Virus record (IMG/VR): IMGVR_UViG_2663763326_000013
Origin: a virus
Taxonomy: Duplodnaviria; Heunggongvirae; Uroviricota; Caudoviricetes
Strand: one strand, 5' to 3'
Length of the DNA stretch: 45,258 nucleotides
Positions 2,846 to 45,258 of this stretch are shown here, one piece after another. Numbering within the stretch: the first letter of the stretch is position 1; every line of letters starts with the position of its first letter. The notes under the pieces are model-generated. The model saw only the letters and a program-made list of their open reading frames with translations, did not search any database and was not told where the DNA came from. The position numbers and the translations under genes are program-made.

Positions 2846-3081
2846 TGGTTGCCTCCTTTACGGATCTGCGCTGCGATGCGCGAAAAAAAAGACTCCCGCG
2901 TATGACTGTTAAGAGCTGGCGCGAACGCTGCGTTAAGAACGGCAGCATCACAGCCGTCATCGATATAGAGCGCAATTTTTTTCTCCAGGCGCGCTTTGGC
3001 TTCCTGCAACTGCATACCCCGGCACGCACGCGGGATATACTCAGCAATTTGAGCGATAGATTTTTCGTTCTGTTTAAACAT
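2842..3081 (-). CDS. hypothetical protein
   Basis: 79-aa ORF, start/stop overlap with neighbours in the same operon. Confidence 0.35.
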   Translation of the reverse strand: MFKQNEKSIAQIAEYIPRACRGMQLQEAKARLEKKIALYIDDGCDAAVLNAAFAPALNSHTRESFFSRIAAQIRKGGNQ

Positions 3082-12704: not shown

Positions 12705-13700
12705 GTGACCGTGAGAGCACTACTGACCCCTGAAATTGCCCCGCGTATGGGGATCGTATTGTTCAGGCCAGGTTCAGAGCTGATGCCCCTGTTTATGCAG
12801 GGGCGTGTTCTGCTGGAGCCTGAGCCGGAACGTTATTCATCTTTCGCCAGTGGTGCCGTTCCGGCGGCATCACAACCGCTGGCGGATGATCCTGCCGTTC
12901 GGGCCGTGTTCCGCAATGAGGCAGTGATCCGTCGTGCTGGTGGCGTGGAATGTCTTGAAAGCTGGTTACTTCGTGAAAAAGGCTGCCAGTGGCCTCATTC
13001 CGACTGGCACAGCGAGAACATGACCACAATGCGACACGCTCCGGGCGCAATCCGTCTGTGCTGGCACTGCGATAACCAGCTGCGCGATCAGTTCACGGAA
13101 CGGCTGGAATCAATGGCAACGGATAACTGTGCCCGCTGGGTGTTGTCTGTTGTGCGTCGGGATCTCGGTTTTGATGATAGTCACGTTGTGACAATGCCGG
13201 AACTGTGCTGGTGGCTGATTCGTAATGACCTGGCGGATGCCTTACCGGAAAGTGCAGCCCGTAAGGCACTGAGATTACCAAAGCCTGTTGTGCCGTCTGT
13301 CACCCGGGAAAGTGACCTTGTGCCTTCGGTTCCTGCCACCAGCATCATCCAGGATAAGGCAAAAAAGGTGCTGGCGCTGAAAGTGGATCCGGAGTCGCCG
13401 GAGTCTTTTATGTTACGCCCAAAACGCCGCCGCTGGGTTAATGAAAAGTACACGCGCTGGGTTAAGACACAGCCGTGTGCATGTTGTGGAAAGCCTGCTG
13501 ATGATCCCCACCACCTGATAGGTCACGGTCAGGGTGGAATGGGAACAAAAGCGCATGACCTTTTTGTGTTGCCTTTGTGCAGAAAGCATCACGACGAGCT
13601 GCATGCGGATACCGTGGCATTTGAAGAGAAGTATGGCTCCCAGCTGGAGCTGATATTTCGTTTTATCGATCGTGCGCTGGCAATTGGCGTGCTGGCCTGA
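12705..13700 (+). CDS. DUF968-family protein with C-terminal HNH-like zinc-finger motif
   Basis: 331 aa, GTG start; C-terminal CACCGKP...HH...CRKHHDELH resembles an HNH/zinc-ribbon nuclease motif; nin-region position. Confidence 0.5.
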
Positions 13701-13717
13701 TTTTGTGGAGAAAGTTG

Positions 13718-14083
13718 ATGCGTGATATTCAAATGGTTCTTGAACGTTGGGGGGCATGGGTGGCAAATAATCACGAGGATGTCACTTGGTCGTCTATTGC
13801 TGCAGGATTTAAAGGACTAATCCCTTCAAAAGTAAAATCCCGCCCGCAATGTTGTGACGATGACGCGATGATCATTTGTGGATGCATGGCTCGCCTGAAA
13901 AAGAACAACAGCGATTTGCACGATTTATTAGTGGATTATTATGTAGGTGGTATGACGTTTATGGCGCTTGCCCGTAAACATGGGCGTTCTGATTGCTGGG
14001 TTGGGCGTTTATTGCAAAAGGCTGAAGGTGTAGTTGATGGCATGTTAATGATGTTAGAAATTGAGCTAGAGATGGATCGTTAG
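13718..14083 (+). CDS. Late-gene antiterminator Q (QuuD/phage-82-type Q family)
   Basis: ORF from 13703; ATG at 13718 has GGAG 7 nt upstream. [14 protein letters not shown]...[24 protein letters not shown] recalled as Q-homologue of E. coli cryptic prophages. Confidence 0.7.
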
Positions 14084-14125
14084 AAGACCTCTTATTAAGG
14101 GGGTAATTGAATCAGTTTAATGTGT

Positions 14126-14156
14126 GGGGAGTCGATTTATTCTCCCCATTTTATTT
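14126..14156 (+). terminator. Stem-loop GGGGAG-N10-CTCCCC followed by T-rich tract
   Basis: Read from sequence; lies between Q stop and the convergent lipoprotein gene. Confidence 0.35.
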
Positions 14157-14167
14157 AATTAATTTAC

Positions 14168-14614
14168 TTAAGGTTTTAATTCATCAAGACGTTGTTGGAT
14201 AGTGTTTTTGCTTGCGTTGTCTGTTATAGCCATTTGTTGTACTTGCCCCATTGCCATTTGAGTTTCCATCCACATATCGGCCCACACTTTTGTATCGTTA
14301 TTAACTTGAGCGATAGTAAATTTGACTTTTGATACCGGGGTTGTTGAATAGGCATTGCCGATTAACATTTGTCCAAAAACAGCAGACCCGCCTTCCAGTT
14401 CTTTACCACATATAACACTGCTGTTATCCGCGTTGTAAATTATCAACCCTCTACTATTGCAGTAATTCACAAGGGCATCTTTGACTTTATCTTTTGTCGT
14501 ATTTTGATAAACCCCCTCAGGTTTTCCTGATTGAGTTTTCTTTATCAATGGTACGGAAGAAGTACAACCTGAAATGATAGTTGCGCTAAGTAATAATACA
14601 GTCATTTTATTCAT
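14168..14614 (-). CDS. Lipoprotein of unknown function (moron; signal peptide with lipobox ISGC)
   Basis: 148 aa; N-terminal MNKMTVLLLSATIISGC is a signal peptide plus lipobox; gene is AT-rich and on the strand opposite to flanking phage genes. Confidence 0.55.
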   Translation of the reverse strand: MNKMTVLLLSATIISGCTSSVPLIKKTQSGKPEGVYQNTTKDKVKDALVNYCNSRGLIIYNADNSSVICGKELEGGSAVFGQMLIGNAYSTTPVSKVKFTIAQVNNDTKVWADMWMETQMAMGQVQQMAITDNASKNTIQQRLDELKP

Positions 14615-14679
14615 GTTTCTTATCCATTGTTAAGGGCATACCCACACAATTATTTTTATTGGAGATGAATAATCAACCG

Positions 14680-14707
14680 TTTACAATCGTAAAAAATCAA
14701 ATATGCT
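14680..14707 (+). promoter_or_regulatory. Putative late promoter pR' (TTTACA-16nt-TATGCT)
   Basis: Sigma70-like hexamers upstream of a short leader that ends in an intrinsic terminator; arrangement resembles lambdoid pR'/tR'. Confidence 0.35.
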
Positions 14708-14740
14708 GTTAAGAGTGGTTACTTCGCCACACAACTTAAA

Positions 14741-14762
14741 CCCGCCGCTGAGCGGTTTTTTT
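14741..14762 (+). terminator. Putative tR' intrinsic terminator (GCCGC-tga-GCGGU + U7)
   Basis: Short GC stem followed by TTTTTTT about 35 nt downstream of the putative pR' -10. Confidence 0.45.
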
Positions 14763-14860
14763 GTACCTGTAAACCTGGTGCAGTACAGTAAACACGCTGG
14801 TGGTCGTGAATACTGACTTTTTATCTTGCTGGCTTTTTAGACAAGAGTTATTGGTATGTC

Positions 14861-15088
14861 ATGTTAACCAGAAGGGAAAAAGACATGCTAAAACAGCAAG
14901 ATATGACAGAAACCGCCGCAGCAGTCCTTCATTTCTTACCTGCTGACAAGTGGGTAACGCCACGCATGATGACGAGAACTACCGGAGTAAGCGAAGCCCG
15001 GTGCCAGTTAATACTGACTCAGTTAGTTCTGGCGGGTCTGGCGAAGGATAACGGCGGGTACGGGAATAAATTCAGACGCTGCCAGTAA
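14861..15088 (+). CDS. hypothetical small protein (possible winged-helix)
   Basis: 75-aa ORF, first ORF of the putative late transcript, upstream of the methyltransferase. Confidence 0.35.
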   Translation: MLTRREKDMLKQQDMTETAAAVLHFLPADKWVTPRMMTRTTGVSEARCQLILTQLVLAGLAKDNGGYGNKFRRCQ

Positions 15089-15238
15089 TGGCGGTTTCCT
15101 GCTGTGAAAATGGGCGGCTGGTGGGTGTTGGTAGCACCTGCCAGCCATTCGCTCATGCTTACTGGTCACAAGCGAACCACGGCCCACTGCTTTAGCGCAA
15201 AAGCAGAGTGAGCCTACCAGAGTTACGCTTACTGATCC

Positions 15239-16291
15239 ATGAAAAATACTGTAAAAATAAACAGTGTTGATTTAATCAACGCTGATTGCCTGCATTTTAT
15301 TCAGTCCCTGCCTGATGATTCCATTGACCTGATTGTTACCGATCCGCCGTACTTCAAGGTGAAACCCAACGGCTGGGACAATCAGTGGAAAGGGGACGAA
15401 GATTACCTTAAGTGGCTGGACCACTGTCTGGCCCAGTTCTGGCGGGTGTTAAAACCTGCCGGAAGCCTTTACCTGTTCTGTGGGCATCGCCTGGCATCTG
15501 ATATTGAGATCATGATGCGTGAACGTTTCAACGTGCTTAACCATATCATCTGGGCGAAGCCGTCCGGACGTTGGAATGGGTGTAATAAAGAAAGTCTGCG
15601 CGCATATTTTCCTGCCACAGAGCGCGTTCTGTTTGCTGAACATTACCAGGGGCCATATCGCGGCAAAAGTGACGGCTATGCGGCAAAAGAAAGGGAACTC
15701 AAACAGCACATAATGGCACCGCTGATATCGTATTTCAGGGATGCTCGTGCCGAACTGGGTATAACGGCAAAACAAATTGCCGAAGCCACAGGTAAGAAAA
15801 ATATGGTTTCCCACTGGTTTGGTGCCAGTCAGTGGCAGTTGCCGAATGAGGCTGACTATCGGAAGTTACAGGCACTGTTTTCCCGTATAGCGGCAGAGAA
15901 GTTTCAGGAACAACAACTGGAACAACCACACCACCAGCTGGTGGCATCTTATGATTCACTGAATCGCAAATATTCTGAATTGCTGGATGAGTTTAAATCT
16001 CTCCGGCGCTATTTCTCCGTATCAGTCTCCGTGCCTTATACCGATGTCTGGATGCATAAACCCGTTCAGTTCTACCCGGGGAAACATCCGTGTGAGAAAC
16101 CGGCGGATATGCTCAGGCAAATAATCAATGCCAGTAGTCGACCAGGTGATCTGGTTGCTGATTTTTTTATGGGATCCGGTTCCACAATAAAAGCAGCAAT
16201 GGCGCTGGGGCGTCGGGCCTTAGGTGTTGAGCTTGAGTCAGAGCGGTTTAACCAGACAGTGAAAGAGATAAACGAGCTGGTGGGGAAATAA
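15239..16291 (+). CDS. DNA methyltransferase, beta-class N6-adenine/N4-cytosine type (orphan)
   Basis: 350 aa; motif IV DPPY near the N-terminus (LIVTDPPYF) and AdoMet motif FxGxG near the C-terminus (DFFMGSGST). No adjacent endonuclease. Confidence 0.7.
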
Positions 16292-16358
16292 TCTGGTGGC
16301 CACGTCAGGTGGCCTTTTTATTTCCATTACACAGCACCCGCATCTGCGAGGTGGGGTT

Positions 16359-38193: not shown

Positions 38194-38213
38194 ATTTTAT
38201 AACCCCAATATGG

Positions 38214-38237
38214 GCGTCAGAAATGACGCCTTTTTTA
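38214..38237 (+). terminator. Rho-independent terminator after J
   Basis: GGCGTCA-aaa-TGACGCC stem followed by TTTTTT. Confidence 0.65.
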
Positions 38238-38260
38238 TTGCAGAAAAGCGAGAGGTAATT

Positions 38261-38860
38261 ATGCGTAAATTATGTGCTGTTATTCTGTCCGCAGTAGTCT
38301 GGCTGGTTGCCGCTGGTACGCCAGCGAGCGCAGCAGAGCATCAGTCCACACTAAGCGCCGGGTATCTTCAGACCCATACTGATATGCCAGGCAGTGATGA
38401 CCTGAAGGGCATTAACGTGAAATACCGTTATGAATTTACGGACACGCTGGGGCTGGTGACGTCATTCAGTTATGCCAATGCCAAAGATGAGCAAAAAACG
38501 CATTACAGCGATACCCGCTGGCATGAAGATTCAGTGCGTAACCGCTGGTTCAGCATGATGGCGGGGCCATCTGTACGCGTGAATGAATGGTTCAGTGCTT
38601 ATGCGATGGCAGGTGTGGCTTACAGCCGTGTTTCGACGTTCTCCGGGGATTATCTCCGCGTAACTGACAACAAGGGGAAAACGCACGATGTGCTGACCGG
38701 AAGTGATGACGATCGCCACAGCAACACGTCTCTGGCGTGGGGAGCTGGCGTGCAGTTTAACCCGACCGAATCCGTGGCCATTGATATTGCTTATGAAGGC
38801 TCCGGCAGTGGCGACTGGCGCACTGACGGTTTCATCGTGGGTGTCGGTTATAAATTCTGA
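38261..38860 (+). CDS. lom: Lom-like outer membrane protein (Ail/Lom family beta-barrel)
   Basis: ORF from 38210; start at ATG 38261 (MRKLCAVILSAV... signal peptide); sequence recalled as near-identical to lambda Lom (STLSAGYL...GFIVGVGYKF). Confidence 0.8.
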   Translation: MRKLCAVILSAVVWLVAAGTPASAAEHQSTLSAGYLQTHTDMPGSDDLKGINVKYRYEFTDTLGLVTSFSYANAKDEQKTHYSDTRWHEDSVRNRWFSMMAGPSVRVNEWFSAYAMAGVAYSRVSTFSGDYLRVTDNKGKTHDVLTGSDDDRHSNTSLAWGAGVQFNPTESVAIDIAYEGSGSGDWRTDGFIVGVGYKF

Positions 38861-38924: not shown

Positions 38925-41321
38925 ATGGCAGCAGTAAAAATCTCAGGTGTGCTGAAAGATGGTGCGGGAAAACCAATACAGAACTGCACTATTCAACTGA
39001 AGGCAAAGCGTAACAGCACCACGGTACTGGTGAACACGGTGGCTTCTGAAAATCCGGATGAAGCCGGACGTTACAGCATGGATGTTGAGTATGGCCAGTA
39101 CAGCGTCACCCTGCTGGTTGAAGGTTTTCCGCCTTCACATGCCGGGACCATTACCGTCTATGAAGGCTCCAGACCAGGTACGCTGAATGATTTTCTCGGT
39201 GCCATGACGGAAGATGATGTCATGCCGGAGGCATTGCGTCGTTTTGAGGCAATGGTGGAAGAAGTGGCACGCAACGCCGAAGCCGCCTCTCAGAGCGCAG
39301 CGGCGGCAAAGAAATCCGAAACTGCAGCGGCATCATCAAAGAACGCGGCGAAAACCTCAGAAACGAATGCAGCTAATAGTGCACAGGCGGCAGCGGCCTC
39401 ACAGACTGCATCGGCAAACTCCGCGACAGCAGCCAAAAAATCAGAAACCAACGCGAAAAATAGCGAGACAGCCGCAAAGACGAGCGAAACCAACGCAAAG
39501 TCCAGCCAGACGGCAGCGAAAACCAGCGAAACGAATGCCAAAGCCAGTGAAACTGCGGCAAAAAACAGCCAGGTTGCAGCAGCCCAAAGCGAGAGCGCGG
39601 CAGCCGGTTCTGCGACTTCAGCAGCCGGATCAGCAACTGCTGCGGCTAACAGCCAGAAAGCTGCGAAGACGAGTGAAACTAACGCAAAGTCCAGCCAGAC
39701 AGCAGCGAAGACCAGCGAAACGAATGCCAAAGCCAGCGAAACTGCGGCGAAAAGTAGTCAGGCTGCAGCAGCCGAAAGCGAGAGTGCTGCAGCTGGTTCT
39801 GCAAGTGCGGCGGCTGCTTCTGCCACTGCATCAGCTAACAGTCAAAAAGCAGCCAAAACCAGTGAAACCAACGCAAAGGCGAGCGAGACTGCGGCGGCGA
39901 ACTCGGCGCAAGCATCGGCAGCAAGCCAGACAGCAGCTAAAGCAAGTGAAGACGCAGCCAGAGAGTATGCAAGCCAGGCAGCGGAGCCGTATAAACAAGT
40001 TTTGCAGCCGTTGCCCGATGTGTGGATACCGTTTAATGAATCACTGGATATGATTACTGGTTTCGCTCCTGGTTATAAAAAAGTAACTATCGGTGATGAT
40101 GTTATTACTTTTCCATCAGAGAAGGTTGTATCTTTCACTCGCTCCACTTCTGCAACGTATATAAACAAATCAGGTTCATTTGCTTTTGCAGAAATTAACG
40201 AGCCGCGCTTTGAAAAGGAAGGTTTATTAATTGAAGGTCAGAGGACAAATACATTTACTAATAGTAACAATCCTTCATTATGGAATTATGACGACAAGAA
40301 TATAGAAATAACCACATCGGTTGATGAATATGGTTTTAAATATGGTTTGTTCAATGTAAAGGAAACATCAACTACTGAAAGGGCGACGATAATATCTACT
40401 GGATACAGTAGGGTTATTGATGTTGCTGCAAATGAATCTGTTACTTTGTCCTGTAGGGTTAAGAAGATAAATGGAGAAGGTATTATAACGTTAAGACCCA
40501 GAATATCTTTCGTTAACGATGACGGCACAAGCAACACGCTGGTAGCTGGTTCCTACATAGATTGCGAAACTGGTGATGTTTTAGGTTTTTCTGGTGGGGA
40601 TGCTGTAAATCATGTCATATACAGAGAAGCTAACGGATGGTTACGCGTCGAATTTACATATAAATCACCAGAAGCAAAAAGCATGTATGGGCGCTTTGAA
40701 ATGGGAGCAGATAAAAGGGCGATCAAAAAAGGCGATCAGATAATGTTTACTACGCCGCAATTTGAAAAAGGATCGTGTGCATCATCATTTATCGTTACAT
40801 CAGATGTGGCAGTTACACGGGCTAGTGACGTGGTAATAATGCCAATAAGACTGAACTGGTCAACACCTCCGTTAAGCGTTCTTATGGAAGTTAATATCAA
40901 CTGGGACAAAATGCCAAACAGTGAAGGTTCAGCAAGGCTTCTTAACGTGTCAATAACTGGCGCAACAACGGATGTTGCTGATGAAAGTTATATGTATTTT
41001 GGTTTTACCTCTGGAGGCGCGCGCTCAATTATAACTAACGGAAAAGGAACAAAGACCGAGTATAAAGCCTACTGTAACAGGACAACCCGCAGGTTTATTG
41101 CTGGGTTTAAGTTTACAGAGCAGAAAGAATTGCGTGCTGTTATAAACGGTAACTTTGGCGCTGTTGGTGTATCACAACACACAAGACAACGTTATACAGA
41201 AGGGCCAATAAATATAGGCGGTCAATCAATATCAGGTAACAGGCATTTATTTGGACACGTGCGCAATTTACGTATCTGGCATAAGGAACTGACAGATGCA
41301 CAAATGGGAGAAAGAATATAA
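38925..41321 (+). CDS. stf: Side tail fibre protein (lambda Stf-like N-terminus, repetitive Ala/Ser/Thr-rich shaft, distinct lectin-like C-terminal domain)
   Basis: ORF from 38919; ATG 38925 has GGAG 6 nt upstream. N-terminus MAAVKISGVLKDGAGKPIQNCTIQLKAKRNSTTVLVNTVASENPDEAGRYSMDVEYGQYSV matches lambda Stf; C-terminal ~400 aa is AT-rich and ends with a LamG-like pattern. Confidence 0.75.
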   Translation: MAAVKISGVLKDGAGKPIQNCTIQLKAKRNSTTVLVNTVASENPDEAGRYSMDVEYGQYSVTLLVEGFPPSHAGTITVYEGSRPGTLNDFLGAMTEDDVMPEALRRFEAMVEEVARNAEAASQSAAAAKKSETAAASSKNAAKTSETNAANSAQAAAASQTASANSATAAKKSETNAKNSETAAKTSETNAKSSQTAAKTSETNAKASETAAKNSQVAAAQSESAAAGSATSAAGSATAAANSQKAAKTSETNAKSSQTAAKTSETNAKASETAAKSSQAAAAESESAAAGSASAAAASATASANSQKAAKTSETNAKASETAAANSAQASAASQTAAKASEDAAREYASQAAEPYKQVLQPLPDVWIPFNESLDMITGFAPGYKKVTIGDDVITFPSEKVVSFTRSTSATYINKSGSFAFAEINEPRFEKEGLLIEGQRTNTFTNSNNPSLWNYDDKNIEITTSVDEYGFKYGLFNVKETSTTERATIISTGYSRVIDVAANESVTLSCRVKKINGEGIITLRPRISFVNDDGTSNTLVAGSYIDCETGDVLGFSGGDAVNHVIYREANGWLRVEFTYKSPEAKSMYGRFEMGADKRAIKKGDQIMFTTPQFEKGSCASSFIVTSDVAVTRASDVVIMPIRLNWSTPPLSVLMEVNINWDKMPNSEGSARLLNVSITGATTDVADESYMYFGFTSGGARSIITNGKGTKTEYKAYCNRTTRRFIAGFKFTEQKELRAVINGNFGAVGVSQHTRQRYTEGPINIGGQSISGNRHLFGHVRNLRIWHKELTDAQMGERI
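39471..39900 (+). repeat. In-frame tandem ~192-bp repeats (about 2.3 copies) within the tail fibre shaft
   Basis: Nucleotide units beginning about 39471 and 39663 encode near-identical ~64-aa blocks (AKTSETNAKSSQTAAKTSETNAKASETAAK...ANSQKA); generates spurious ORFs on other frames and strand. Confidence 0.6.
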
Positions 41322-41602
41322 TGCGAGACTTAACTCTCAAATTCATAAACAAGGCCGACTTTTCGGCCTTTATGGATAGCATTGGTTATGAAGATGACGA
41401 GGTAATGCAGAACAATGTTCTCATTGATGTGATAGGTAACGTGTACAAAGAAACCGGAGAACTTACTGAAGATGGCGAGCCGGTATGTGTTAAGGAAGAC
41501 GGATATTTTGTAAACGTGCGCATCATTAATGATGCAAAAAAATCGTCAATATTCGATAAATACGCGGTTGTTGTTGAGCATCAACTTCGTGGCTGGATGT
41601 GA
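41321..41602 (+). CDS. hypothetical protein (AT-rich, downstream of tail fibre)
   Basis: 93-aa ORF with ATGA overlap with stf stop; acidic; no recognisable motif. Occupies the position of a tail-fibre assembly gene but is not Tfa-like. Confidence 0.4.
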   Translation: MRDLTLKFINKADFSAFMDSIGYEDDEVMQNNVLIDVIGNVYKETGELTEDGEPVCVKEDGYFVNVRIINDAKKSSIFDKYAVVVEHQLRGWM

Positions 41603-41611
41603 GGTAGAGAA

Positions 41612-42301
41612 ATGGCTACATCGACAGTAATTCCAGGAGATATCACCAAGCTAAAGGGGGATGTCAGTAAAGCTAAGGAAGATATTTCATCAATTAGCGG
41701 AAAAGTATCAACGCTTCAGACTGATATGGACAGTGCAAAGCAGGATATCAGTACCAGATACACAAAAACTGAAGTTGATAATAAGCTGAAAAACAAAGTG
41801 GAAGCGAACGATCTGGAAAGCGGTCGTTATGGCGGTGATTTTTACCCGCTGACTGGTCGTGAAGCATTTTATTTATGGAATTTGGGCACGACTACAGCGG
41901 CGGCAAACCTTTATCTTAATCCTGACCCTGCAATTTCGTCTGTACTGCGGTCAACATCGTCTATTCGCTATAAACATTCAGTAGAGACGATAGATTCAGA
42001 GCACGCCGATCTCATTTTCAAGATGCGCCCTGTGTGGTACAGGTCGCAATGCGAAAATGACAGGCGCGATTGGGGATTCTATGGATTGATTGCCGAGGAA
42101 GTAGGAGAAATTGCCCCTCAGTTTGTTCACTGGCGACCAGCTAACGAAGATGATGCACCGGAAACCATTTCCAGCAATGGCCTTGTTGCCGAAGGTGTAA
42201 TGTACGAACGTCTGGTTGTTCCACTGATTCACCATATCCAGAAACTGACTGAAAGAGTTGATGAACTTGAGTCAGAATTAAAGTTGTTATCAACTTCCTG
42301 A
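41612..42301 (+). CDS. Tail-fibre-like protein with C-terminal intramolecular chaperone (peptidase S74-like) domain
   Basis: 229 aa; N-terminal coiled-coil heptads, C-terminal GFYGLIAEEVGEIAPQFV... and terminal coiled coil resemble the endosialidase-type chaperone domain. Confidence 0.45.
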   Translation: MATSTVIPGDITKLKGDVSKAKEDISSISGKVSTLQTDMDSAKQDISTRYTKTEVDNKLKNKVEANDLESGRYGGDFYPLTGREAFYLWNLGTTTAAANLYLNPDPAISSVLRSTSSIRYKHSVETIDSEHADLIFKMRPVWYRSQCENDRRDWGFYGLIAEEVGEIAPQFVHWRPANEDDAPETISSNGLVAEGVMYERLVVPLIHHIQKLTERVDELESELKLLSTS

Positions 42302-42724: not shown

Positions 42725-42973
42725 TTAATGAACAAACCACTCGTCAGCAGACTCCCAGGTATCTTTCAGAGTTTCCTGAACAAAAGTTTTAGCTGAATCT
42801 TTATCGGCGGTGCGCGTAACAGAAAGGCCATCGTTGCTGGTGGCTTTTACGATCACCTCTACATCGTCATAACGCTTACTGATGCGTCGAGTTAATTCTT
42901 CCTTTAACGCATCCACAGCACCGTTTGGCATTTTAGTCATTTTCTCTTTGGCTATGCAGATCTCAATACGCAT
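42725..42973 (-). CDS. dinI: DinI-family protein (DNA-damage-inducible protein I-like)
   Basis: 82 aa; [31 protein letters not shown]...[15 protein letters not shown] parallels E. coli DinI (MRIEVTIAK...LQETWESADDWFV). Confidence 0.75.
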
Positions 42974-43034
42974 AAAAATCCCTCTATACTGTGTTTGTAT
43001 ACAGTATTATTTTTAACTGTATGAATAAACAGTG

Positions 43035-44132
43035 TCAAGAGGTCTTATTTCTGCTCCTTTGGAGTTCTTCAAAACGATTATGTAAAGATTTTGGATACAG
43101 TTCGGTATATACCTGCCATAGCACGTTTAATGAACGATGCCCTGTAACCTGGGCGACTTCCTCAATACTAAAACCAGCCTCAAATAAGCGACTTGCCCCT
43201 TCTCTACGCAAATCATGGTATCGCAGATCTTTAATACCTAATTTGCTTCTTACCCTCTGAAATCCTGCGGTAACAGAAGTGCTGTTGTATGGAAAAATGA
43301 ATTCAGATTTTTTGGGTTGTCGTTGGACGATATCCCAGGCTTCCCCAAGCAAGGCCACTTTCATATGGTTACCTTCCTTTTTACGTGGATCTTTCCTGTC
43401 TCTTACTAGTATAGATTTTTGTTCCTGGTCGAGATCTTCCCATCGTAACCGGCATACTTCTCCGATTCGCATACAGGACCACACAGAAAATTTGAGGATA
43501 TCAACGAACGGAATTTTTGAGCATTTATGAGTAGATCGTTGTTGAAGGCCTTCAATGAGCATGTCTAGTTCATCAGATGCTGGTCTACGATTACGACGAT
43601 TTGATTTACCAATTAAACCAAGTTTAAGTAGATATGGACGAGCGGCTTTTGCTGGGTTTGATGTGTAATTAATTCCGTATACAGGTTTGGCTGCATCCAG
43701 AACACTGCCAAGATAACTAACATCGTGGCTAACAGTAGCTGGACCTGCACCGGCGTTGTTTCTCAACCTGCAATGTTCTATTACGTCATTTTCTGTTAAT
43801 TCAGATAGTCTGATCGCAGAAATGTCACTATCCATAAGTAGTTCCAGCACATATCTTTTAGTACGGCCTGCTTTACCTCCGGCATTTGGGTCATTTAAAT
43901 ATTTGCGTAGTAAGTCACGGACTGTAAGCCCGTCAACAGCATTTGATGATGGAATGCCATGTAGATCTAATTCCATCACTTTCTGTGTGCCCCATGTTTT
44001 GGCATGAGCATGTTTAGGGAATGTTTTGCTTTCCCTGTAAGTGATAACCCCTTTTTCTTTGATAATCACATTACAGCGATAGCGTGGTGTGCCATCGGAT
44101 TTTAGTCGTTTCTCTATGTTATAGTACGCCAT
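43035..44132 (-). CDS. int: Tyrosine integrase (phage integrase family, dusA-associated)
   Basis: 365 aa; C-terminal catalytic-domain pattern (R ... HDLRREGASRL ... VTGHRSL ... Y); adjacent to the dusA 5' end. Confidence 0.85.
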   Translation of the reverse strand: MAYYNIEKRLKSDGTPRYRCNVIIKEKGVITYRESKTFPKHAHAKTWGTQKVMELDLHGIPSSNAVDGLTVRDLLRKYLNDPNAGGKAGRTKRYVLELLMDSDISAIRLSELTENDVIEHCRLRNNAGAGPATVSHDVSYLGSVLDAAKPVYGINYTSNPAKAARPYLLKLGLIGKSNRRNRRPASDELDMLIEGLQQRSTHKCSKIPFVDILKFSVWSCMRIGEVCRLRWEDLDQEQKSILVRDRKDPRKKEGNHMKVALLGEAWDIVQRQPKKSEFIFPYNSTSVTAGFQRVRSKLGIKDLRYHDLRREGASRLFEAGFSIEEVAQVTGHRSLNVLWQVYTELYPKSLHNRFEELQRSRNKTS

Positions 44133-44300
44133 TACACGACCTCGTTATTTCGGGTTCCCATAAAACGTGGGAACCTGTGCGGGAACCTAACGCGAGAAAA
44201 ATAGCCTGAAATGTTCAAAAATGCACGATAATCATGAAACACAAAAAATTAATCAAACCAGCGTGATGCCTGAAAAAAATGGTGTTTACTGGAATTCTCG
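44133..44300. other. Putative prophage-host junction (att region overlapping the dusA 5' end)
   Basis: Integrase start faces the dusA start codon region; dusA-targeting integrases are known to insert in the 5' end of dusA. Exact core not determinable without the second att copy. Confidence 0.3.
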
Positions 44301-45258
44301 GTTTAGCATTGCTCCTATGCTTGACTGGACGGACAGACATTGCCGTTATTTCCTGCGTCTGCTTTCCCGCAATACGTTGCTGTATACCGAAATGGTGACC
44401 ACAGGGGCGATTATTCACGGTAAAGGTGATTACCTGGCGTACAGTGAAGAAGAACATCCGGTAGCGTTGCAACTCGGGGGTAGCGATCCGGCGGCGCTGG
44501 CACAGTGTGCGAAGCTGGCAGAAGCGCGCGGATATGATGAGATCAACCTGAATGTCGGCTGCCCGTCTGACCGGGTGCAGAACGGCATGTTTGGTGCGTG
44601 TCTGATGGGTAATGCGCAGCTGGTTGCCGACTGCGTGAAAGCGATGCGCGATGTGGTGTCGATTCCGGTGACGGTGAAAACGCGTATTGGCATCGATGAT
44701 CAGGACAGCTATGAATTTCTCTGCGATTTCATCAACACCGTTTCCGGCAAAGGTGAGTGTGAGATGTTCATCATCCACGCACGTAAAGCCTGGCTTTCTG
44801 GGTTAAGTCCGAAAGAAAACCGTGAGATCCCGCCGCTCGATTATCCGCGTGTGTATCAACTGAAGCGTGACTTTCCGCATCTGACGATGTCGATTAACGG
44901 TGGTATCAAGTCGCTGGAAGAAGCTAAAGCGCATTTGCAACATATGGATGGCGTGATGGTCGGGCGCGAGGCGTATCAGAATCCGGGGATTCTGGCGGCG
45001 GTAGACCGAGAGATTTTTGGTTCCTCGGATACCGATGCCGATCCGGTGGCGGTAGTGCGCGCCATGTATCCGTACATTGAGCGTGAACTCAGCCAGGGGA
45101 CGTATCTCGGCCATATTACCCGGCATATGCTGGGCTTGTTCCAGGGTATTCCTGGCGCGCGGCAGTGGCGACGTTATTTAAGTGAAAATGCCCATAAAGC
45201 GGGTGCAGACATTAATGTGCTGGAACACGCGCTCAAACTGGTGGCGGATAAGCGTTAA
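44221..45258 (+). CDS. dusA: tRNA-dihydrouridine(20/20a) synthase DusA
   Basis: 345 aa; FMN-binding TIM-barrel Dus motifs ([35 protein letters not shown]); ORF runs to the window end with a stop at 45256-45258. Confidence 0.9.

Follow-up and report, generated by a model that had tools for sequence, protein, structure and literature searches.

Cor, Llp and HK97 gp15 are small, moron-encoded envelope proteins that are encoded in or beside tail modules and exclude phages, and superinfection exclusion is the commonest role known among small prophage lipoproteins and tail-module morons. T5 Llp is an outer-membrane lipoprotein that blocks the receptor of phage T5 itself from the periplasmic side, and its gene lies next to that of the receptor-binding protein; HK97 gp15 is an inner-membrane protein, not a lipoprotein. 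Here we analyzed the gene of a 148-residue lipoprotein (14168–14614, minus strand) in a 45,258-nucleotide (nt) stretch of viral DNA (IMG/VR record IMGVR_UViG_2663763326_000013; hereafter the window, meaning the whole stretch), which is a lambda-like Escherichia coli prophage. The gene lies between the gene of the antiterminator Q and the late promoter pR', as identified by homology.

The closest counterparts by position are the genes of the porin NmpC (DLP12 and mEp332) and the lipocalin Blc (Lambda_4B5): like the lipoprotein gene, both are minus-strand envelope-protein genes between a PF06530-type Q (81–95% identical) and the same pR', but both proteins are unrelated to the helix-grip lipoprotein of the window. 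Cor (phi80, HK022, N15 and T1) resembles the present protein in being a small moron lipoprotein of temperate siphophages encoded, like most of the homologues described below, beside tail genes. However, Cor has 77 residues compared with 148 here, the Cor family is found in 237 sequenced-phage records compared with 2, and HK022 Cor aligned (hhalign) with our alignment of 18 homologues (A1) over residues 1–31 only, that is, the signal peptide and lipobox. Similarly, lambda Bor, a member of the Iss family that confers serum resistance, is a lysogen-expressed, opposite-strand moron lipoprotein of the late region, but it aligned with A1 over residues 1–39 only, again the signal peptide, and bor sits after Rz, at another genome position. 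T5 Llp differs from the lipoprotein in size and fold; hmmscan against all PHROGs at E ≤ 0.01 returned phrog_3152 alone, and no direct pairwise comparison with Llp was made. HK97 gp15 is comparable with the Citrobacter, Xenorhabdus and L016-18 homologues as a moron among tail genes near the tape-measure gene. These results agree with a first-pass annotation of the same DNA, made from the sequence alone, which had considered the protein to be unlike Cor, Llp and Bor.

A lipoprotein cassette between Q and pR'

The Q gene (13718–14083, plus strand) encodes 121 residues from its ATG (the longest open reading frame (ORF) begins at a TTG at 13703), and its product matches PF06530 (E 2e-51) and phrog_79 and is ∼80% identical to Q of Shiga toxin (Stx) phages such as TL-2011c. 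The first-pass annotation had placed the insertion of an AT-rich lipoprotein gene between Q and the late promoter, and the comparison with related phages bears this out. By blastn, the match to mEp332 breaks off at 14098, and from 14679 onward both mEp332 and the Stx phages are homologous again; the homology with other phages starts exactly at the −35 hexamer of pR'. These boundaries delimit an inserted, AT-rich cassette, or moron, of ∼580 bp (14099–14678). In the window, the end of Q is 595 bp (14084–14678) from the −35 hexamer, with the lipoprotein gene in between, whereas in the empty sites of Sakai Sp5 and TL-2011c Q runs directly into this promoter, with its end overlapping it; Sakai Sp5 has the same Q–pR' arrangement, and the lipoprotein gene is missing from this position in otherwise homologous phages. 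The base composition deviates as well: the G+C fraction is 0.376 for the lipoprotein ORF and 0.366 for 14099–14678 compared with 0.506 for the window overall, only 0.3% of the 580-bp stretches in the window are as AT-rich as the cassette, and the minimum for the window falls here.

The insertion is accompanied by a difference in Q itself. Q has 121 residues in the window and 125–127 in Lambda_4B5 and mEp332 but 144 in the Stx phages (locus L004, 2501–2935), in which it is thus 23 residues longer than in the window and its final codons overlap pR'. The C-terminal tail of Q seems to be dispensable and to have been lost wherever a backward-facing moron was inserted.

Because other phages with a related Q carry different minus-strand genes in the Q–pR' gap (nmpC in mEp332, the blc lipocalin gene in Lambda_4B5 and orf53/54 in cdtI), the gap is a recurrent moron site, and it is known as a hot spot for backward-facing morons. 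The locus thus illustrates how backward-facing envelope genes have repeatedly landed in the few base pairs that separate Q from the −35 hexamer of pR'. We take nmpC of strain LF82 to lie at this same site. In LF82 lysogens, NmpC is transcribed 10-fold above the prophage background (PMC9928086). The cassette described here is widespread: among 5426 complete E. coli genomes, 185 contain its full-length 579-bp core, UTI89 and an O157:H7 strain being two of them, and the three carrier contexts inspected have the gene order DUF968–Q–lipoprotein (minus strand)–small ORF. Further, the region of interest is 99% identical between the window and the inducible phages PhiR40_1 and PhiR55_1.

We propose that what was inserted between Q and pR' as a moron is a unit of one opposite-strand gene, a candidate sigma-70 promoter and a downstream stem-loop. 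The candidate promoter, TTGATT-16-AATAAT (14649–14676, minus strand; 9/12 in a consensus scan), lies inside the cassette and stands back-to-back with pR', leaving 3 bp between the two −35 hexamers; transcription from it would start ∼28 nt ahead of the ATG. A similar TTGATT-17-TATTAT precedes the Citrobacter homologue. The top-scoring minus-strand promoter of the scan, TTAACA-18-TAAAAT (14633–14604), was rejected because its −10 hexamer lies inside the ORF. Because the lipoprotein gene points in the direction opposite to the late operon and is located upstream of pR', its expression is independent of Q, and we infer that the lysogen transcribes it from a promoter of its own, as would be expected from the behavior of NmpC in other prophages.

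Beyond the 3' end of the gene, scanning and folding revealed a hairpin, GGGGAG-N-CUCCCC followed by AUUUUAUUU (14126–14155, plus strand; stem-loop 14126–14145), with fold energies of −16.8 kcal/mol on the plus strand and −11.2 kcal/mol on the minus strand. This element would act both as a terminator for rightward read-through past Q and as a 3' stem for the lipoprotein mRNA. As positioned, it would halt unmodified rightward transcription before antisense entry into the lipoprotein gene.

The lipoprotein and its family

The lipoprotein begins at an ATG with the sequence MNKMTVLLLSATIISGC, and its signal peptide (14564–14614, minus strand) has a basic n-region (K3), an uncharged h-region and an I-S-G-C lipobox with the cysteine at position 17 (codon 14564–14566), followed by Thr, leaving a mature protein of 132 residues. 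The lipobox, which the first-pass annotation had also read as ISGC, was judged by eye against the PROSITE rule ([LVI][ASTVI][GAS]C, Cys at 15–35, basic n-region), and Cys17 is invariant in the 18 homologues of A1. Under the Lol rule, lipoproteins without Asp after the Cys go to the outer membrane. Because Thr and not Asp follows Cys17, sorting to the outer membrane is expected, and from these sequence features the protein probably localizes there. It would thus be made as a prolipoprotein, lipidated on Cys17 and probably sent to the outer membrane by Lol, exposing a disulfide-braced alpha+beta domain of ∼130 residues with a helix-grip/TBP-like fold to the periplasm.

The protein matches phrog_3152 over its full length (E 6e-104, residues 1–148 against profile positions 1–148 of 148). 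We found 291 near-identical sequences, and close homologues (50–72% identity) in Salmonella, Jejubacter, Citrobacter, Xenorhabdus, Photorhabdus, Morganella, Enterobacter and Phytobacter; the protein is annotated as hypothetical everywhere. Pfam gave only subthreshold matches to SapB_1 and SUR7, NCBIfam gave no match, and searches of PDB sequences with the single sequence and with the profile gave nothing below E 0.9. The name VirB7 carried by the Xenorhabdus homologue in UniProt was taken as an automatic label, since neither a Pfam match nor fold similarity stands behind it; it probably derives from the lipoprotein signal. The gene is under purifying selection, with pS (proportion of synonymous differences) of 0.71–0.87, which is saturated, compared with pN (proportion of nonsynonymous differences) of 0.19–0.32, and dN/dS (ratio of nonsynonymous to synonymous substitution rates) of 0.07–0.14 where it could be computed. 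Selection of this strength argues that it is a real gene. The suggestion in the first-pass annotation that the protein might be a new factor holds insofar as the family is uncharacterized, but not with regard to novelty as such: the family is already catalogued (phrog_3152, with the 291 near-identical sequences and 185 E. coli genomes), and the site is a known hot spot.

All eight close-homologue contexts that we examined are prophages. The Salmonella and Jejubacter homologues lie between tail genes K and I/J, the Citrobacter and L016-18 homologues lie between the tape-measure gene H and M, and the Xenorhabdus homologue directly follows the tape measure; the remaining copies are in a P1-like dar region (Enterobacter), a nin region (Phytobacter) and a prophage early region (Chromobacterium). 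The tail-module copies interrupt the otherwise tight packing of tail genes, and two of them have strong intrinsic terminators immediately 3' (L010, 6461–6478; L016, 6522–6543), one also having a promoter-like site in front. Copies with their own terminator present the classic moron picture. These terminators stand inside tail operons between H and M, and transcription of the late tail genes must pass them. Plasmids hardly ever carry the family: only four plasmid records match. One of these has the size of a chromosome (4.9 Mb), and another, 99% identical, is an E. coli fragment of 17 kb; we suspect that both of these are prophage DNA. A link to conjugative plasmids or entry exclusion was rejected on these grounds. 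Overall, the results show that the lipoprotein gene is conserved, under selection and carried by temperate phages as a mobile accessory unit. The feature is an ordinary kind of moron, from a widespread family that is already catalogued though unstudied.

Structure prediction, which the first-pass annotation had put forward as a means of placing the protein, gave a fold class but no relative. The AlphaFold2 model (predicted local distance difference test score (pLDDT) 85) has a helix-grip/TBP-like fold and resembles BamC domains, Flpp3 and many SRPBCC proteins at identities of 6–17%, but Foldseek returned no match below E 6e-3 in PDB or among the viral structures of BFVD. For the BamC helix-grip domains and Francisella Flpp3 (DUF3568), identity is 6–9%, and the likeness is one of fold class, without sequence-level homology; no match in Pfam, NCBIfam or PDB sequences pointed to BamC-like homology or to a BamD-binding N-terminal segment. 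The 18-homologue alignment has 26 invariant columns, including Cys17 and Cys69, and Cys52 is nearly invariant, which makes a Cys52–Cys69 disulfide likely from the sequences; the conserved motifs are GNAYSTTP and KVWADMWxETQMAxGQ.

On a wider scale, a profile search of 1.84 billion representatives yielded 790 clusters (50% identity) at E ≤ 1e-3. In many of the longer family members, PDZ, often together with SHOCT, comes after the domain, and TPR fusions also occur; the PDZ/SHOCT fusions are found in Xanthomonadales and Sphingomonadales. Remote homologues from Xanthomonas (L025, 714–1625) and Tsuneonella (L027, 5001–5915) are domain–PDZ fusions, the latter with SHOCT too. The surroundings of both of these PDZ members are island-like, containing an integrase, an SLFN-type helicase, a nuclease (SNase) or RadC, and are possibly mobile elements.

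Possible roles at the cell envelope

We posit, tentatively, that the lipoprotein acts in superinfection exclusion at the cell envelope; among the roles considered, this is the one that we favor, at somewhat less than even confidence. The protein would bind a conserved outer-membrane or periplasmic component of the host and so block incoming phages, either when they adsorb or later, while the tail tip or DNA is crossing the periplasm. A role in exclusion or lysogenic conversion is a reasonable proposal because the contexts are phage-only and placement in the tail module is frequent.

Several results weigh against this proposal. The candidate lipoprotein promoter has only 9/12 consensus matches, and on the minus strand, the strand of the gene, the 14126 stem lacks a U-tract. 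PADLOC gave no match of the lipoprotein to a defense-system model beyond a single low-scoring one (PbeC, E 0.013, 12 bits); a literature search by protein accessions and PHROG family gave no paper on the function or expression of the lipoprotein. Only 2 of 50,697 sequenced phage records carry the gene. The receptor-binding ends of J show no covariation with the lipoprotein: the C-termini of the J proteins of the window and PhiR40_1 are unrelated to the corresponding ends in the Salmonella, Jejubacter and L016 carriers. The breadth of the domain family (790 clusters, conserved motifs and PDZ/SHOCT fusions) also sets it apart from Cor and Llp, whose families are narrow and receptor-specific. An association of the lipoprotein with one particular receptor-binding domain of J was considered and rejected, as carriers from E. 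coli and those from other genera have unrelated J C-termini.

The lack of covariation with J ends and the broad, conserved family together speak against the simple blocking of a receptor as by Cor and Llp and point to a conserved envelope partner. A more specific reading, which we regard as rather unlikely as a whole, is that the protein represents, in phages, a large family of envelope domains that has neither a name nor a Pfam model and extends from prophages of Enterobacterales and Chromobacterium to the PDZ/SHOCT fusions, and that it excludes phages by a mechanism other than that of Cor and Llp. It could, for example, bind a conserved periplasmic or outer-membrane component that is needed for passage of the tail tip, the tape measure or DNA. 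Such a mechanism would explain both the frequent adjacency to the tape-measure gene and the failure to track the receptor-binding end of J.

A serious, if unlikely, alternative to exclusion is that the lipoprotein is a Bor-type factor of host fitness or virulence that alters the envelope (serum or complement resistance, stress tolerance, membrane integrity or adhesion) and has no part in exclusion. The anatomy and site of the moron are those of the lysogenic-conversion genes nmpC and blc, the cassette is found in pathogens such as UTI89 and O157:H7, the broad, conserved family with its PDZ and TPR fusions suggests that a conserved envelope component is bound, and the fold is like that of the Francisella virulence lipoprotein Flpp3 and BamC domains. 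However, similarity to Bor/Iss is confined to the signal peptide, and the 185 E. coli carriers come from mixed hosts (human, pig, chicken, dog and water) with no obvious link to a pathotype; frequent placement in the tail module suits phage-related functions better.

The placement of most other copies bears on a further alternative, namely that the protein helps the lytic cycle by masking receptors or envelope debris so that progeny are not wasted, or by aiding lysis or tail function. For T5 Llp, sparing of released progeny by receptor masking is a second described role. In most other phages, the homologue is co-oriented within the late tail operon and would therefore be transcribed late even without a promoter of its own. 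In E. coli, however, the gene is on the opposite strand upstream of pR', out of reach of Q-dependent late transcription; moreover, the strong terminators after the tail-module copies are typical of autonomous morons, and holin, endolysin and Rz are all present in the phage apart from the lipoprotein gene. We consider a helper of this kind improbable.

Just as improbable, in our estimate, is that the helix-grip/TBP-like domain binds a hydrophobic ligand, holding a lipid, part of a lipopolysaccharide or an acyl chain in the periplasm, with any effects on exclusion or virulence being secondary. The predicted fold invites this idea, but the structural look-alikes are only 6–17% identical and, as noted above, Foldseek found none below E 6e-3, and the conserved motifs include loop positions of lower model confidence that would suit a protein-binding surface equally well. 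That the gene is a passenger without current function, as its hypothetical status in all annotations might suggest, is very improbable, since purifying selection is strong across genera, the ORF is intact in the annotated contexts examined and all 185 carriers have the cassette at full length.

If exclusion or envelope remodeling by the lipoprotein is correct, it would give a function to a domain family that is widespread in prophages of E. coli (UTI89 and O157:H7), Salmonella, Citrobacter and others. The protein would also be a new structural type among the few known phage lipoproteins that act at the outer membrane, with relevance to the host range of phages used in therapy and to the contribution of prophages to their hosts. 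As the gene is carried by PhiR40_1, which is a functional phage, and by UTI89, a well-studied host, it is a reasonable candidate for work at the bench.

The late promoter, its leader and neighboring genes

By homology, 14680–14714 (plus strand) is pR', the Q-dependent late promoter of the Q933W-like (PF06530) group, with −35 TTTACA at 14680–14685, −10 TATGCT at 14702–14707 and a predicted start at A14714. The sigma70-like site TTTACA-16-TATGCT (14680–14707), which the first-pass annotation had likened to pR', was recovered by our promoter scan, and the window sequence 14679–14767 aligns at 79–86% with the DNA immediately after Q, overlapping its end, in TL-2011c and Sakai Sp5 and with the DNA after nmpC in mEp332. 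Because both pR' and the proximal hairpin of its leader are conserved with the Q-adjacent promoter region of the Stx phages and mEp332, they are not chance matches. The start site of the Sakai PR' was mapped by differential RNA sequencing (dRNA-seq; Sy et al., PMC7547250). After correction for a 142-bp shift between genome versions, this start is an A seven bases past the −10 TATCAT; A14714 is its equivalent in the window, with the −10 hexamer and the start A in the same register. The likeness to pR' thus extends to a promoter with an experimentally mapped start. We also considered a pR' in the interval that separates Q from the lipoprotein gene, in which case the terminator tR' would be the 14126 hairpin, but rejected it because that interval has no promoter and only 42 bp, and homology puts pR' at 14680.

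A near-palindrome, TTTACAATCGTAAA (14680–14693), covers the −35 hexamer and spacer of pR' and has a perfect form, TTTACGATCGTAAA, in the Stx phages. The palindrome TTTAC(A/G)NNCGTAAA is common to phages with a related Q, and TTTACRNNCGTAAA is common to phages with a Q ∼80% identical or more, albeit in a small sample; cdtI, with a Q 49% identical, has another −35 and spacer sequence but keeps the transcribed region. From this pattern, which is as expected of a Q-specific site, the palindrome TTTACAATCGTAAA is a candidate Q-binding element.

The leader of pR' contains a proximal terminator-like hairpin followed by U7 (14741–14762, plus strand; +28 to +49; hairpin plus T7 at 14744–14762 in the scan), which is conserved in mEp332, the Stx phages, cdtI and Ayreon and is called a terminator in the Ayreon annotation. 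It is also the point downstream of which phages with a quite different Q (mEp460, Ayreon and the Stx2c phages) have DNA in common. An Rfam scan of 13500–15400 gave one match, at chance level, and no family fits the pR' leader. In Sakai, the 3' end of the PR' transcript was mapped at +258, a distal tR' (PMC7547250). The homologous proximal hairpin must therefore be leaky there, and the stem in the window is weaker than that of Sakai (compare whole-leader folds of −13.4 and −21.9 kcal/mol). The first-pass annotation had likened the leader hairpin to tR'; as a conserved terminator-like element it stands, but 14741–14762 is homologous to the proximal hairpin of the Stx phages and not to the tR' at +258. 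A second intrinsic-terminator-like hairpin was found by the scan at 16298–16322 (plus strand), between the methylase and holin genes, and Ayreon has a terminator annotated at the matching position. With this hairpin besides that at 14741–14762, the late leader has at least two terminators, of which the proximal hairpin is the first.

Between the two terminators lie a small ORF of unknown function (phrog_331; 14861–15088, plus strand), which is the first late-leader gene and is common to mEp460, Ayreon, cdtI and the Stx2c phages, and the gene of a DNA adenine methyltransferase (15239–16291, plus strand; PF01555, E 2e-42; PADLOC MTase_II). Compared with the PR'/StxS leader of the Stx phages (Sakai Sp5/Sp15), the promoter, the initial transcribed hairpin and the proximal hairpin with its U-tract are homologous (79–80% over 90 bp). 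The Sakai leader, however, runs 258 nt to the distal tR' to yield the small RNA StxS, and this distal part has no counterpart in the window, where orf75, an intact methylase gene and the 16298–16322 terminator follow. In Sakai Sp5, just a 3' remnant of the methylase directly follows the mapped tR' (L007, 1118–1188; 79% identity to window 16190–16260). If the proximal hairpin of the window leaks, the methylase could be expressed in lysogens.

In Ayreon (L002), two copies of the proximal hairpin (2324–2353 and 3001–3030), 90% alike, stand on either side of a plus-strand ORF of 141 residues, an arrangement suggesting that morons use the terminator sequence itself as a joint for recombination. The PhiR40_1 annotation of a 37-residue hypothetical protein over the pR' leader and hairpin (window 14703–14816) is probably spurious.

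At the right end of the window, the integrase gene (43035–44132, minus strand) adjoins dusA, which encodes tRNA-dihydrouridine synthase A (both within 43035–45258), and this adjacency indicates that the prophage occupies the dusA integration site. Two other stretches with a G+C fraction below 0.40 were found: 39901–41800, which covers the distal half of the side tail fiber gene and the small ORFs after it, and 42841–43541, which surrounds the 3' end of the integrase gene. The prophage also carries a second envelope moron, the gene of a Lom-like outer-membrane protein (38210–38860), between J and the side tail fiber gene.

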